Shown: in pieces, positions 9,195-48,228 of the stretch | How the letters are laid out: every line of letters begins with the position of its first letter | Position numbering within the stretch: the first letter of the stretch is position 1 | Notes under the pieces: generated by a model | Seen by the model: only the letters and a program-made list of their open reading frames with translations | Database searches by the model: none | What the model was told of the DNA's origin: nothing | Made by a program: the position numbers and the translations under genes | DNA from: Minisyncoccota bacterium | GTDB taxonomy: Bacteria; Patescibacteriota; Minisyncoccia; Phycocordibacterales; JACRKE01 | Direction of reading: 5' to 3' | Assembly: GCA_041660505.1 (NCBI GenBank) | Contig: JBAZWG010000001.1 | Span: 477,776-541,775, forward strand | Length of the DNA: 64,000 nt

Positions 9195-9641
9195 TTATAC
9201 CTCCCCCTCCTTGCTCTTAGCTAATGCTGCCACCAAAATTTTTAATCTCTTTTTATCCCTTTCTAAAAAGTTCCTCTGATTTCTTAGCCAACTCTCCTTG
9301 TTAAATCCCGGTTCCATTATTACCGGCATATCGTTTACCCGTGCCTCTGACTGCCTTACTTCTGTCTCTTTATGATTGACCCAATCCTGCAACTTCTCCA
9401 TGTTCCCCTTGCTCTCTTGCAATGTTTTGCCTATGAGTGCATCATTTATCTTTGCCAACGGCCTACTTTGTAATTCGGTAATCACCGAACTTAGATTCAG
9501 GCCCATTCTATCTAGATGCTCCAGTGTTTTTACTACATTCTCTAAGTCATCCGCCATACCTTCTAACTTCCGGCTGTCATTTTCCATCAAATCTTCCACC
9601 GAGTGTTCCTCGTTTGAATCATAAGAATCTTCGATTCCCAT
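9195..9641 (-). CDS. Hypothetical acidic coiled-coil protein
   Basis: 148-aa ORF with no recognisable domain; predicted helical and charged. Confidence 0.4.
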   Translation of the reverse strand: MGIEDSYDSNEEHSVEDLMENDSRKLEGMADDLENVVKTLEHLDRMGLNLSSVITELQSRPLAKINDALIGKTLQESKGNMEKLQDWVNHKETEVRQSEARVNDMPVIMEPGFNKESWLRNQRNFLERDKKRLKILVAALAKSKEGEV

Positions 9642-9675: not shown

Positions 9676-9683
9676 CCCCCCCC
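9676..9683. promoter_or_regulatory. Poly-C8 tract inside the putative promoter spacer of the 9195..9641 gene (TTGCAA-like -35 at about 9690-9695 on the minus strand)
   Basis: ctttaccccccccacgaaatttgcaag. A similar ACTTGCAAA(A/T)TTCG -35 context also precedes the minus-strand gene starting at 24572. Confidence 0.3.
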
Positions 9684-43186: not shown

Positions 43187-43917
43187 AAAAATTATTAGGT
43201 CTCATTATTCTTATTATTTTTGCCGCGCTTATTTGGTTTGGCAAGCAATCTTCGCAGCCGGATTATACTGTCGTTACGAGTAAGATAGGCGAAGAGAATG
43301 TCGCAGAGAAATATTCGCTAGATCTAGAGTACCCCTCGTTTCTTTCGGACAGCCAGAAATTTCAATTTATAAACGCCGACATCCACGAACTCATTGCGAC
43401 GACCAGTTTACAATTTCACGAGAATGCTAAAGACTACGCGCAATACATCAAAGATAATAATCTCGAAGCGGAAGGATTAACTCAAGGGAGCTCTCTTGTT
43501 ATTGGGTATGAGGTGGCTACCGGTACGACAGGAGTGTTACCGGTGAAGATAGTAATAGAAGAGTACAATGCCGGTGCGGCGCATCCGAACCATATCACGG
43601 TGACGCGTAATTATGACATATCAATGCAGAAGATCTTGAGTCTTGCGGATTTGTTCGCACAGAACGTGGACTATCTGGCCGTGATTGCGAAATATAGCAA
43701 GAGAGCCCTAGAGAAAAAATTCGAAGCGGACCAAGTACCGACAGATCCAGAATGGCTTGCAACTGGGACGGAGCCGAAGGCAGAGAACTATGAAGCCTGG
43801 CTCGCAGAAGCAGATGGCCTACACATAATCTTCAACGAATATCAGGTGGTCGCGTATGCCTACGGCGTACCAGAAATAGTTATCCCATGGAACGAACTTC
43901 AGAAGATCAAAAAATAA
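43183..43917 (+). CDS. Hypothetical secreted/membrane-anchored protein (DUF3298/DUF4163-like)
   Basis: N-terminal TM segment ([16 protein letters not shown]); composition resembles DUF3298/DUF4163 domains. Confidence 0.4.
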
Positions 43918-44939
43918 AGCAAGAGAAGACTTTTGTTTCGCGCGGTGGGCTCAAGCTTGAACATGCGCTCAATGAATTTAAGGTAGATGTGGCTGGCCTC
44001 ACTGTTCTTGATGTCGGCTCGTCAACAGGAGGCTTCGTCGACTGCTTACTCCAACGCGGTGCGGCCAAGGTCTTTGCTGTCGATACCGCCTATGGCGAGT
44101 TCGCATGGACTCTGCGCAACGACCCGCGCGTGGTCGTGATGGAGCGGACGAATATTTTACATCTTAAAGAGCTTTCAAGTTCCACCAACCTCACCCCTGC
44201 ACCCCTCTCCGAAGGAGAGGGGGAATTTGGATACCAAAAAACGGACCCGAAAACATGGCATTTATTACAAGAAGCCACATTGGAAATGCGAAAGAATCCC
44301 ACTCAAGCGGAAAAAATTTTGTGGGAAGCATTAAGAGACCTTGCCCCCTCTCCCTCTGGGATGGCGGGGATAAGGTTTCGAAGGCAACATATCATCGGCC
44401 GATTTATTTCAGATTTCGTATGTTTACCAAAGAGACTCGTAGTTGAAGTAGACGGAGATATTCACGATTATCAAAAAGCCGCTGATGAAATTCGCACAGA
44501 ATATCTTACGAATCTTGGCTATACTGTTATCAGATTTAACAATGATAGAGTCTTAAATGATCTACAAAATGTAATCAGAGAAATTGAATCTCGTATTCAT
44601 CCCCCCTCTCCTTCGGAGAGGGGGACGGGGGGTGAGGTTGTCGACTTCATCACAATAGACGCGAGCTGGACCAAGCTTACGCTAATCTTACCGGTAGTGC
44701 AGAAGTTTTTGAAACCCAGTGGGAGAGTCATTGCGCTACTCAAGCCACATTATGAAGCTTCGCAATCGATCTTGCGTAAGGGCGTCTTGAAGGACGATAA
44801 AGTGGCAGAGATTGTGACGAAAGTGTCCGCCACTATCGAAGCTCAGGGCTGGAAAATAAACGGCCAAACAGAGTCACCGATACTCGGCGGAGGAGGTAAT
44901 AGAGAGTTCTTGATACTACTTACTCTTAAACAGCCATAG
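43887..44939 (+). CDS. tlyA: TlyA-family rRNA (cytidine-2'-O)-methyltransferase (FtsJ fold, no S4 domain) carrying an in-frame DUF559 (Vsr-like endonuclease) domain insertion
   Basis: FtsJ motifs [12 protein letters not shown] and [27 protein letters not shown] are at the N-terminus, and the methyltransferase C-terminal part follows the insert. The inserted DUF559 block is KILWEALR ... [34 protein letters not shown] ... [13 protein letters not shown]. Confidence 0.75.
44202..44223. repeat. Family C GC hairpin (CCCCTCTCC-GAAG-GGAGAGGGG) at the 5' boundary of the DUF559 insertion in tlyA
   Basis: Perfect 9-bp stem with a GAAG tetraloop; translated as PLSEGEGE. Confidence 0.8.
44602..44624. repeat. 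Family C GC hairpin (CCCCCTCTC-CTTCG-GAGAGGGGG) at the 3' boundary of the DUF559 insertion in tlyA
   Basis: 9-bp stem with a TTCG-type loop; translated as [10 protein letters not shown]. Confidence 0.8.
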
Positions 44940-44949
44940 AATAAAGAGT

Positions 44950-45351
44950 GTGAAAATTCCCGCAGACATTGCTAAAAAGTTTCTCGAGTGGATCAAAGTA
45001 AAGATTTTCACTGAAATTTCTGGTCGCCACTTGATTTTCAGTGAAGGTGAGATCTGGTGGACAAGTATCGGGCACAATATTGGTATGGAATCAAACGGTA
45101 AGAATGAAAACTTTGAACGCCCGGTGCTGATACTTCGTAAATTCGGCAAAGACTCATTCTGGGGAATTTCTGTTTCGAGTAATATTAGAATAGACCATTT
45201 CTACTATAGATTTAAGTTAAAAGGAGAAGAGTATTGTCTTAATCTCTCTCAACTTCGGCTATTAAGCTCAAAAAGATTACTGAGGCGCGTCGGTTATTTT
45301 AACGCGGAAGATTTTACTAAGGTCAGATCTCTCATTAAAGATTTGGTATAA
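44950..45351 (+). CDS. MazF/PemK-like toxin fold protein (solo, no adjacent antitoxin)
   Basis: EGEIWWTSIGHNIGMESNGKNENFERPVLIL resembles the MazF motif GD(I/V)(V/W)W..GxEQxGxRPxLVL. Confidence 0.4.
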   Translation: MKIPADIAKKFLEWIKVKIFTEISGRHLIFSEGEIWWTSIGHNIGMESNGKNENFERPVLILRKFGKDSFWGISVSSNIRIDHFYYRFKLKGEEYCLNLSQLRLLSSKRLLRRVGYFNAEDFTKVRSLIKDLV

Positions 45352-45712: not shown

Positions 45713-46342
45713 GTGTCGGCGATGGGGGTTCTCCTCACCGTACTCACCGCCATCGTCACCGGCCTCCGCAGGAGGAAAGTGACGGAGGCCATGGTCTACG
45801 AGCTCGGGACGCCGGAAGGTGTGCCAACGCTCGAGAGGATCATGGATGCCGTCGCGGGGATTTTGGTCCCCATGACAGAGGCAGCCAAAGTGGCCGTCGA
45901 AACCGTCCGCGACTTCATTTCCCTCCGGGCCACGGTCGAATGCGATTTCGACAAAGGCCTTAAGGCGGTCGTTGAACTGGTCAAGAAGGCATTGGGGCTG
46001 ACCTACGTCAACCCCGACGTCTTCAAAATCGAGTGGTCATGGAAGGGGTTGCAAAACCTCGACATGGCCCTGTTCCATTTCAACAGGAACATGTCGACCG
46101 ACGCCGCGGAGAAGGAGATGGACGATGCGGGCTATCGGCCCGCAAACATTGCGGAGTTGCTTTTCTTCGCACTGTTCCACCCCGAGCTCTTCTTGAGCTA
46201 TCCGCTGGTTGCTCTAGGCTCGCAGTTCGGCGACTACTCGCCGTGCCTGTACGGTTGGTGCGGCGGCCACCGCAGCCTGAGCCTCCACCTTCGGGGCGGC
46301 GCTTGGTACGGCTTCTCTCGGTCCCTCGGTGTCCGCAAGTAA
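45713..46342 (+). CDS. DGR target (variable) protein, GC-rich, with an N-terminal hydrophobic anchor and the variable region in the last 41 codons (CLec/FGE-like C-terminus ending GFSRSLGVRK)
   Basis: The C-terminal 124 nt (VR, 46216-46339) match TR at 46695-46818 with 24 of 25 differences at TR adenines. GC content is clearly higher than in neighbouring genes. The ORF track starts at GTG 45713; an ATG is at 45722. Confidence 0.8.
   Translation: MSAMGVLLTVLTAIVTGLRRRKVTEAMVYELGTPEGVPTLERIMDAVAGILVPMTEAAKVAVETVRDFISLRATVECDFDKGLKAVVELVKKALGLTYVNPDVFKIEWSWKGLQNLDMALFHFNRNMSTDAAEKEMDDAGYRPANIAELLFFALFHPELFLSYPLVALGSQFGDYSPCLYGWCGGHRSLSLHLRGGAWYGFSRSLGVRK
46216..46339 (+). repeat. DGR variable repeat (VR)
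   Basis: Compared with TR: 25 mismatches, 24 at positions where TR has A (VR has G, T or C), and one T-to-C. Confidence 0.85.
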
Positions 46343-46406
46343 CTTCGAAAACTGGTCACCGGAGACCCTGGGCATTTCCTTGCCCTTGGTCTCCTTGACC
46401 CCTGGA

Positions 46407-46433
46407 CCCCGCGTTCTATCACAGAACGCGGGG
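46407..46433 (+). other. GC-rich hairpin downstream of VR (ccccgcgttct-atcac-agaacgcgggg), consistent with the DGR stem-loop that follows the IMH region
   Basis: 11-bp perfect stem located 68 nt after the VR end. Confidence 0.6.
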
Positions 46434-46694
46434 TTTGCATTTATAAACCACTTTGATATGCTCAACCTCGGATAGTAGGCGAATCTGCTCGCGGTTACGA
46501 CTTCGAGCGGCCGAACTCTGAAAATTAGATTGCCGGAGTTGTGTCGGTTGCGGCTTGCACAAGTGTGCGCTCTAATCTTTCTAAAAACTGAAGATACTTG
46601 GTGCGGTGTGCTACGGGATTATAGATCTCGAAGACGTTACAACCCCGAGAGTACTCGAGGGGCCGTGATCGGACGGCATATCGCGCAACGTGGC

Positions 46695-46818
46695 AGGCTC
46701 ACAGTTCGACGACTACTCGCCGTACCTGAACGATTGGAACGACGACAACCGCAACCTGAACCTCAACCATCGGAGCAACGATTGGAACGACAACTATCGG
46801 TTCCTCGGTGTCCGCAAA
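46695..46818 (+). repeat. DGR template repeat (TR), adenine-rich (AAC codons), non-coding
   Basis: Homolog of VR; adenines occupy the variable positions; not part of a credible ORF. Confidence 0.85.
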
Positions 46819-46830
46819 TCTCTTCACTTC

Positions 46831-47163
46831 TCATCCTCGCCTTGGCGGGGATTGAGTTTCTTTAAGCAAGTTATTCCGCCAGCCACCCAGCATTTTCCCT
46901 ATTTCATCAAGCTGTGTCGATAGTGTAATGTACTTTTTGTTATCAAGTATTTTTGTCTCCCACAATATGCGCATCAGAAACTTCAAAAGATCAAAACGAG
47001 CAGAAGCTTTTTCAATATACAGAAGCTTTTTCGTCCTATCTTGGAAACTTGCAGTGAAGATCAAATCTATGCATTCTAGGAATACCACGTCAATTTTCCC
47101 TCCCAGAGAGTATTTTGACTTCTTGGGTAGGTGGTCTAGGTATTCTGTCCATAGTTTATACAC
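46831..47163 (-). CDS. avd: Accessory variability determinant (Avd)-like four-helix-bundle protein (23S rRNA IVS protein family)
   Basis: 110-aa helical protein; ...ARFDLLKFL ... LSTQLDEIGKMLGGW resembles the four-helix-bundle/Avd family. It sits between TR and the RT on the opposite strand (GTG start). Confidence 0.55.
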   Translation of the reverse strand: MYKLWTEYLDHLPKKSKYSLGGKIDVVFLECIDLIFTASFQDRTKKLLYIEKASARFDLLKFLMRILWETKILDNKKYITLSTQLDEIGKMLGGWRNNLLKETQSPPRRG

Positions 47164-47198
47164 AGTAACCAGCCTGTCGAGTATCGTCAGGCTGTTTC

Positions 47199-47209
47199 GG
47201 GGGGGGGGG
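47199..47209. repeat. Homopolymeric G11/C11 tract between the avd start and the RT start
   Basis: ctgtttcgggggggggggtactttt, 45 nt upstream of the RT ATG and 36 nt upstream of the avd start on the other strand. Confidence 0.8.
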
Positions 47210-47253
47210 TACTTTTAAAGTTTTGGTTTTCCATAATTTGAGAACCCTACCAT

Positions 47254-48228
47254 ATGAGGAAACAACTTACAACAAGTTATGAAGAAATCATCAGCGTCGA
47301 GAACTTACTGCTTGCATGGCAAGAATTCGTTTCTGATAAGAGGAGCAATCCTAACGTGCAACTATTCCAGCTCCGCCTGATGGATCATATAATGTTGCTC
47401 CACTGGGAGCCTGCGAATTTTACCCATGTGCATAGTGGCTATACGCTTTCGAAAATCTTTGAGCCGAAAGAGCGCGACATTCATAAAGCCGGCGTCCGTG
47501 ATCGACTGCCCTGCCACGCGATTCATCGCAAGTTGTATCCATTCTTTGATACAACGTTTATTTCGCATTCGTACTCGTGCAGACTAAAAAAGGGCACACA
47601 CCGGGCTTGTAACTGTTTCAGAAAATTTTATATAAAAGCGAGTAGGAGTAAAAGTCGCACCTGTTGGGTATTGAAATGCGATATACGCAAATTCTTCGCC
47701 AACATCGACCACCAAATCTTGTTCGATATTCTCGCTCAATATATTCCTGACGAAAATGTGGCATGGTTACTCGAGAAAGTAATTTCCAGCTTTGAGCCCG
47801 GCCTTCCACTCGGTAATCTCACTTCACAACTATTTGTAAACATATATATGAACGAGTTCGATCAGTATGTTAAACATAAACTCAAGGCAAAGTATTATAT
47901 CAGATATGCAGATGATTTCGTATTTCTTTCAGAAGACAAAGCTTGGCTTGAGCAACTCGTTCCTGTAATTTCTGATTTTCTTAAAACTCGACTCAAACTT
48001 TCTTTACATCCCAAGAAGATTTCTATTAATACGCTCGCCTCCGGTGTCGATTTTCTTGGCTGGGTGCACTTTCCTAATTATCGCGTGCTACGGACAATGA
48101 CCAAAAAGAGGATGTTCAGGAATATCAGGCGCAAATTGCGTAATCTGGCCACTCTACAATCGTATCTGGGGTTGCTGCAACATGGCAATACGCAGAAATT
48201 ACGAAATATGCTATACTCTCACACATAG
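47254..48228 (+). CDS. Reverse transcriptase, DGR type
   Basis: RT motifs: RDRLPCHAI, motif A LKCDIRKFFANIDH, motif 4 LPLGNLTSQLFVNIYMNEFD (DGR signature [ILV]GxxxSQ), motif C YIRYADDFVFL, motif D LSLHPKK, motif E VDFLGW. At 324 aa it has no maturase or endonuclease domain. Confidence 0.85.
   Translation: MRKQLTTSYEEIISVENLLLAWQEFVSDKRSNPNVQLFQLRLMDHIMLLHWEPANFTHVHSGYTLSKIFEPKERDIHKAGVRDRLPCHAIHRKLYPFFDTTFISHSYSCRLKKGTHRACNCFRKFYIKASRSKSRTCWVLKCDIRKFFANIDHQILFDILAQYIPDENVAWLLEKVISSFEPGLPLGNLTSQLFVNIYMNEFDQYVKHKLKAKYYIRYADDFVFLSEDKAWLEQLVPVISDFLKTRLKLSLHPKKISINTLASGVDFLGWVHFPNYRVLRTMTKKRMFRNIRRKLRNLATLQSYLGLLQHGNTQKLRNMLYSHT

Follow-up and report, generated by a model that had tools for sequence, protein, structure and literature searches.

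The window, by which we mean the whole stretch of 64,000 nucleotides that we analysed, carries an uninterrupted run of 11 G next to the reverse transcriptase (RT) gene of a diversity-generating retroelement (DGR), and the question that it raises is what such a run does there. An initial annotation had placed it in a divergent control region between avd and the RT gene, as a slippage-prone switch for the DGR. The run itself, at 47199-47209, was confirmed in the sequence, as were its distances of 44-45 nt to the RT start codon (ATG at 47254) and 36 nt to a GTG at 47163 that had been taken for the start of avd. In these 64,000 bases, whose G+C content is 48%, no other G run exceeds 6 and no other G/C run exceeds 8. 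Counts of G runs in the window fall with rising length from 9271 through 2347, 422, 126 and 21 to 3, and this roughly 5-fold drop per added base means that only about 0.001 G11 runs would be expected by chance. L001, a Logan contig assembled from SRR18595301, matches the window at 100% identity across 4276 bp, the G11 included; it possibly derives from the same reads, and stands here as a second public assembly, not as a replicate of proven independence. Only one further long G/C run occurs in the window, a C8 between genes (G8 when read on the minus strand) at 9676-9683, 35 nt upstream of the start of a minus-strand ORF at 9195-9641; this C8 could be a second length-variable site.

The surrounding locus runs in the order target gene with VR, TR, avd in reverse orientation, and RT, with the following elements.

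47254-48228, plus strand: DGR reverse transcriptase of 324 aa, divergent from avd, with a match to Pfam RVT_1 (E 7e-22)
46695-46825, plus strand: template repeat (TR), adenine-rich, with 36 A
46216-46346, plus strand: variable repeat (VR), at the 3' end of the target gene (ORF 45713-46342)
46361-46394, plus strand: GC-rich inverted repeat, 15 nt after the VR

The RT translation contains LGNLTSQ and YADD motifs, and GxxxSQ is a hallmark motif of DGR RTs. TR and VR form a 131-nt repeat of 79% identity in which TR adenines account for 24 of the 27 mismatch positions, so the DGR is genuine and has been active. Both the RT type and the TR/VR pair are those of a DGR of architecture B3, TR-(avd)-RT, and the accessory gene lies reversed between TR and RT, the place that avd occupies in that architecture. 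The inverted repeat after the VR resembles the hairpin or cruciform reported downstream of the IMH in some DGRs, and a terminator-like hairpin at 46833-46852 lies directly after the TR, overlapping the avd stop codon. Just upstream of the target gene is an ORF for a PemK/MazF-like toxin (44950-45351); the ORF at 43887-44939 encodes a TlyA-family rRNA methyltransferase that is apparently interrupted by a DUF559 (endonuclease-like) domain at residues ~131-243, its TlyA match falling into two stretches.

Where the run lies relative to avd depends on how the minus strand is read, and four features are needed for this.

47199-47209, minus strand: C11 homopolymer (G11 on the plus strand), frame-setting, forming Thr-Pro-Pro-Pro codons in the 5' part of avd
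47187-47234, minus strand: avd leader ORF at C11, from ATG 47234-47232 through MENQNFKSTPPPETA to TGA 47189-47187
46831-47214, minus strand: avd body frame, open after TAA 47217-47215 up to the stop at 46833-46831
47251-47253, minus strand: second upstream ATG, within a CATATG palindrome common with the RT start

The run is not intergenic: it lies in the avd coding sequence, between ATG 47234 and the body of Avd. The minus strand reads ATG (47234) GAA AAC CAA AAC TTT AAA AGT A, then the eleven Cs, then GAA ACA GCC TGA. The ATG opens MENQNFKSTPPP, which at C11 is out of frame with the Avd body, and the leader stops after 15 codons. The body frame reads KYPPPRNSLTILDRLVTVYKLW..., and its first canonical start is GTG 47163, from which both the ORF list and the public annotation derive a product of 110 aa; the supposed avd start is thus merely the first canonical start codon that remains after the frameshift. 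In the window, the frame of the second upstream ATG (47253) is closed by TAA 47217-47215 and cannot rescue avd, so no canonical start yields a complete Avd from the locus as assembled. One C more (C12) or two fewer (C9) fuses ATG 47234 to the body and gives an Avd of 134 or 133 aa, and in silico tracts of C8, C10, C11, C13 and C14 give leader peptides of 14-26 aa. As at contingency loci, an uninterrupted homopolymer of at least 7-8 nt, here C11, stands near the 5' end within an ORF, and its length toggles that ORF between full-length and truncated. Sets of long and truncated forms also exist as real proteins (P0128, P0126 and P0129; also P0002, P0123 and P0122).

The restored frame encodes a recognizable Avd. 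A homology search with the 134-aa protein found 131 relatives, and it aligns end to end with the full-length ones among them; full-length homologues are 125-147 aa long and show the pattern x-P-P(-P)-x3-L-x-I-L-x-(K/R)-L...Y-K-L-W from the N-terminus, the closest of them, P0002, having 80% identity and starting MKSTPPRNTLTILDRLVSVYKLW. The protein matches Pfam bAvd (PF22296; E 8e-15, 55.7 bits against a cut-off of 40), and restored residues 16-120 match profile positions 1-103 of the 104 in NCBIfam NF033474, at 71.4 bits and thus below that profile's cut-off of 80; this second match sets in 9 residues ahead of the GTG start. No PDB sequence matched a profile of the Avd alignment, but a fold search did find Avd: an AlphaFold (AF2) model of the in-frame homologue P0003, with a pLDDT of 87.8, matched Bordetella Avd (4dwl) with a TM of 0.84 in Foldseek, 8ub7 being a further fold match. 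In the model, residues 1-8 are disordered, PP stands at 10-11 and helix 1 comprises residues 15-34, so the product from GTG 47163 is predicted to lack ~10 of the 20 residues of helix 1. One proline more or less in the disordered leader before helix 1 should be harmless. The leader is genuine coding sequence, the upstream ATG being in frame in all ten homologues without a tract.

The tract is kept in homologous DGRs. Searching GTDB species representatives with the Avd alignment gave 80 loci. Almost all of these are assigned to Patescibacteria/CPR or have no classification, and a handful come from bins of other phyla; a divergent RT adjoins avd in 78 of the 80, and a run of C8-C13 stands at exactly these Pro codons in 68. 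In the remainder of the RT and avd genes, Pro is encoded by CCC in only 26% of cases, and most relatives without the tract also lack PPP, which L073 encodes by mixed codons; it is therefore the homopolymer that is kept, not the prolines. Only one more G/C run of at least 8, at L043:4130, occurs in 386,622 bp, and it is the tract of a second avd copy. That copy has its own C11 (L043:4130-4140), out of frame with its leader (MDLTQPRTPPP...). From the tract to the invariant Avd Trp downstream of it, the median distance is 16 codons, with a standard deviation of 1.15 codons; the distance of the tract to the RT ATG varies from 8 to 52 nt. Spacing that is fixed to the Avd fold but not to the RT points to control of Avd by reading frame.

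The same layout allows a reading in which the run acts as G11, from the opposite strand: it would then belong to the TR-RT transcript or to the RT 5' leader, as a DNA or RNA element with a role in translation, pausing or RNA structure, the changes in avd frame being collateral. In every divergent locus the run does precede the RT ATG by 8-52 nt, any TR-to-RT transcript in the divergent layout must contain it, and the tract is confined to this architecture: among viral-contig controls it occurs in 1 of 80 avd loci, the closest one, which has a divergent RT, and in none of the 68 loci with co-directional avd and RT. However, DGRs of the same layout exist without it (10 of the 80 loci have C6 or fewer, and seven divergent viral-contig loci have no run of at least 8), so the run is not needed for an RT or RNA mechanism. 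The variable spacing to the RT start, a tolerance of C8-C13 that is hard to square with a precise RNA or DNA element, and the lack of a plus-strand promoter-like site nearby in a sigma-70 consensus scan also speak against it, and we regard action on the other strand as very unlikely.

That scan, a simple one covering 46300-47700, found no site spanning the tract on either strand and none at all on the plus strand. A homopolymer switch in a promoter spacer was rejected on these grounds, the tract lying in coding sequence and no promoter-like site spanning it by sigma-70 consensus. The avd and RT genes start head to head (at 47251-47256 in the window, at ~590-615 in L086-L089 and at ~680-725 in L172-L177), so the promoter of each gene must lie inside the other. 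Many relatives have the two ORFs overlapping as mirror images over 21 nt (ATG-N15-CAT), the Met codon of each gene being the antisense of the other gene's His-7 codon, which explains the conserved 'M.QLNFH' leader; in the window only the CATATG palindrome is common to avd and RT, with the usable avd ATG 19 nt from it.

The avd mRNA has one further element, 3' of the C run.

47170-47194, minus strand: hairpin CAGCCUG N11 CAGGCUG, 4 nt downstream of the C run

This hairpin, which the initial annotation had coupled to the run with coordinates one base off, is real but specific to the window, and is not part of a conserved device. Its arms (47170-47176 and 47188-47194) pair perfectly over 7 bp around an inner stem of 3 bp, the whole lying in the NSLTILDRLV codons, and it is unusually stable, with a z-score against shuffled sequences of -2.9 to -3.5, the most extreme of 67 homologous positions. 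It is absent from the closest relatives, L082-L085 (z -0.5 and -0.35, with no compensatory changes), and over the 67 loci we found no conserved structure downstream of the tract (mean z -0.26); these folds ruled it out as a conserved element. The hairpin could nonetheless serve the window alone by stimulating a programmed -1 ribosomal frameshift on the C run, and a -1 slip there would give exactly the avd frame and hence full-length Avd from C11. Against this, relatives need shifts in both directions or none, the hairpin is absent from the closest relatives, and its 4-nt spacer is shorter than the 5-9 nt usual at frameshift sites; we consider a window-specific frameshift highly improbable.

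Across the relatives, an upstream ATG is in frame in 10 of 10 loci with C6 or fewer and in 21 of 71 with C7 or more (Fisher p=2.4e-5), the latter fraction showing no difference from one third (p=0.53). Among tract-bearing loci, 16-21 are in frame, 21 need a shift of +1/-2 and 28 a shift of -1/+2. In 44 of them there is no in-frame ATG, GTG or TTG upstream, and the avd body is intact in all 44, with a median length of 119.5 codons and an HMM score of 167, compared with 172 in in-frame loci. OFF alleles thus keep an otherwise intact gene, which makes reversibility plausible. Random frames combined with intact bodies argue against pseudogenes, against consensus sequencing error and against a programmed frameshift in one direction, and as far as sequence can tell this frame pattern is the classic signature of a contingency locus.

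Tract length also differs between loci that are otherwise nearly or wholly the same. The initial annotation had named invariant length across related genomes as evidence against a switch; instead, C9, C10, C11 and C13 occur among near-identical relatives. L083 (C11) and L085 (C13) align over 1825 bp without a mismatch, the one gap being of 2 nt and at the tract; in this clade, which is that of the window, L082 is in frame at C9, L085 is out of frame, and L083 and L084 are in frame at C11 by way of the ATG of the CATATG palindrome. In the P0025 lineage, two JGI samples have C9, which encodes a 142-aa Avd, and four other sources have C10; L172 (C9) and L175 (C10) differ by 1 gap and 0 mismatches in 1799 bp. 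The sibling JGI samples carry either C9 (3300045372 and 3300045394) or C10 (3300045333) as dominant allele, which is only suggestive with regard to switching within populations. A lineage with both states is also seen in ERZ978390, with C11, and 3300027835, with C13. In the P0036 lineage, C8 is found in contigs from at least three sources and C10 in one contig, with 1 mismatch in 1524 bp between L086 (C10) and L088 (C8); a 90-aa product matching C8 is on record for at least 38 contigs, and the C9 form is the in-frame protein of 147 aa. L034 (C9) and L035 (C10) are 97.5% identical, and proteins clustered at 90% identity include long and short forms side by side with others that have an alternative N-terminus. 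Tract length is thus polymorphic among otherwise identical genomes, as at known contingency loci, in a set of assemblies of which a few are long-read and prone to homopolymer errors. An exact-flank pattern scan of JGI metagenome contigs for window-clade variants returned one contig, L084 itself.

Whether these lengths could be sequencing or assembly error, or avd a dead gene, has to be weighed at this point. Homopolymers are error-prone, a few of the MAGs are long-read assemblies, and N gaps or contig ends occur at the tract in L017, L046, L058 and L081. Error would, however, have to produce the same length in separate collections and pipelines (C10 in four sources, C8 in at least three; the window and L001, L069 and L070, and L083 and L084 agree pairwise), a 2-nt difference with 0 mismatches in 1.8 kb, and out-of-frame tracts in ~70% of loci and in both directions, far above any consensus error rate; decay would have to leave every avd body free of secondary lesions. 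Artefact or decay therefore seems to us extremely unlikely. Decay into a pseudogene was ruled out by the intact bodies; a poly-G sequencing artefact was rejected on the grounds that the tract is internal, identical in the second public assembly and matched by homologous tracts in 68 genomes. The scaffold gaps and contig ends, which lie exactly at the tract in 4 of the 68 loci (N runs in L017, L046 and L058; L081 ends in C13), fit either length heterogeneity among reads or poor sequencing through the run.

The same random frames could arise if the tract were a dimmer of expression, with slippage of RNA polymerase or ribosomes on C9-C13 yielding a minority of in-frame product at any DNA length; Avd would then always be made at a low level and DNA length would drift almost neutrally. 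Frame states as random as 21 in 71, shifts needed both ways (21 and 28) as if length were under no selection for frame, and intact bodies in all out-of-frame loci fit this reading. In a reporter study (bioRxiv 10.64898/2026.04.01.715767), simple sequence repeats in nominally OFF frames were reported to leak, by suppression of the frameshift. Some lineages, moreover, have a second ATG in another frame, and about half of the loci have a possible TTG fallback start, the window having CTG. On the other side, a conserved stimulatory structure is absent over the 67 loci, and transcriptional slippage in bacteria is documented mainly for A/T runs; switching at the DNA level is directly visible as length polymorphism. 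We hold a pure dimmer to be rather unlikely, but the two readings are not exclusive: slippage of this kind is compatible with frame setting by DNA length, and the only difference between them is how silent OFF is.

The TTG codon deserves a remark of its own. It occupies the first residue of helix 1 in ~50% of the 80 loci, compared with 20% TTG among Leu codons elsewhere. This column, that of a conserved Leu, precedes the invariant Avd Trp by 13 codons, and the TTG may serve as an internal start or reflect a constraint at the nucleotide level. A TTG start as compensation for OFF frames was considered and rejected: the codon comes from one Leu column and is as frequent in in-frame and tract-less loci, and so is not a tract-specific compensation.

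Taking these observations together, we favour, with moderate confidence, the reading in which the coding-region poly-C tract sets the avd frame by changes in its length and thereby gates Avd supply, cDNA synthesis and diversification of the VR. Of the switch that had been proposed at the outset, the length-variable tract tied to the DGR stands; its action would go through the avd frame, and we found no evidence for an effect on the RT. As a long homopolymer, the C run would gain and lose bases, presumably by slipped-strand mispairing at replication, each change resetting the frame. At C12 or C9, ATG 47234 would be joined to the body and full-length Avd made; at C11 only the GTG-47163 product would be possible, with half of helix 1 missing, and the supply of functional Avd would presumably be lowered. 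By this inference the window genome is in the OFF frame, one insertion away from ON. In Bordetella phage, the RT (bRT) is inactive by itself and depends on Avd (PMC6182149). If Avd, shown to be essential in the Bordetella system, is likewise essential in CPR DGRs, the tract would by analogy decide at random, heritably and reversibly, whether cDNA is made and the target gene diversified.

Tracts of the same kind are known as poly-G/C in Campylobacter jejuni and Neisseria, as 7C in M. tuberculosis glpK and as poly-C in Group A Streptococcus mga. As described in PMC4965091, PMC10330708 and 10.1101/717272, such contingency loci have a G/C homopolymer of at least 7 in the 5' part of an ORF where +/-1 nt toggles the frame, their OFF alleles keep the downstream ORF, and lengths differ between otherwise identical strains. 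The avd tract shows every contingency-locus feature that sequence can test; it differs from the pathogen loci in gating a cofactor of targeted hypermutation and not a surface antigen, restriction-modification or metabolic gene, in its hosts, which are free-living or episymbiotic CPR bacteria and not host-adapted pathogens, and in its conservation across many candidate phyla. Type III mod genes (phasevarions) likewise have a simple-sequence repeat within an ORF that stochastically switches a genome-modifying activity, and there too OFF may leak; what they control is methylation and a regulon, whereas here it would be mutagenic retrohoming of one target gene. Recoding sites of dnaX and IS elements resemble the tract in placing a homopolymeric slippery run between two frames of one gene. 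Those sites, however, need one fixed, conserved shift, whereas avd tracts are found in frame, at +1 and at -1 without a conserved stimulator; across the 67 loci neither a uniform direction of shift nor a conserved stimulatory structure was found, as programmed recoding would call for.

Among DGRs, that of Bordetella phage BPP-1 has the same four-helix-bundle fold of Avd and an RT with TR and VR showing adenine-specific differences, but its avd is co-directional (avd-TR-brt), whereas here avd is reversed between TR and RT and has the tract. We know of no homopolymer in the BPP-1 avd. In the survey by Wu et al. 2018 (PMC5758913), architecture B3, TR-(avd)-RT, makes up 90% of the CPR set surveyed, and its gene order and orientation are the same as at the window locus; among the matches listed from that survey, neither a homopolymer nor variation in the avd frame is mentioned. 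Nothing in the searchable literature linked DGRs or avd with homopolymers, frameshifts or phase variation; this is no proof of novelty. The tract is probably a contingency tract, conserved across many CPR lineages, that controls a DGR, and we found no earlier description of it.

For a functional protein, uncontrolled mutagenesis is costly. A frame-setting homopolymer in Avd would give bacteria with tiny genomes and few regulators a cheap and heritable form of control, in which diversification is mostly off and is re-armed at random. We see the odds as evenly balanced on the broader claim that a large clade of CPR DGRs has such a second-order stochastic switch, a conserved and hypermutable poly-C tract that turns targeted hypermutation on and off heritably and reversibly. 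If it does, most cells, and ~2/3 of sampled populations, would keep the variable protein fixed while a minority diversifies; the tract would then be the first genetic element described to regulate DGR activity in CPR organisms, and a diversity generator would be under the control of a contingency locus. From tract length in assemblies one may be able to read the state of a DGR in metagenomes, so that a link between phase and VR turnover could be tested with existing data.

The tract also bears on annotation, in that gene callers systematically mis-annotate tract-bearing avd genes as truncated, at ~90-115 aa, or miss them. On L001, gene calling gave no avd gene in the stretch from the target gene to the RT, and many avd products of the clade in public collections are recorded as N-terminally truncated, at 75-115 aa.

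In some lineages a second ATG lies upstream of the tract in another frame, within CATATG in L083 and L084 (C11) and as ATGTTA directly before the C10 in L174-L177. Two of the three tract-length classes then give a complete helix 1 with a different leader, so the switch could be graded and not binary in those lineages.
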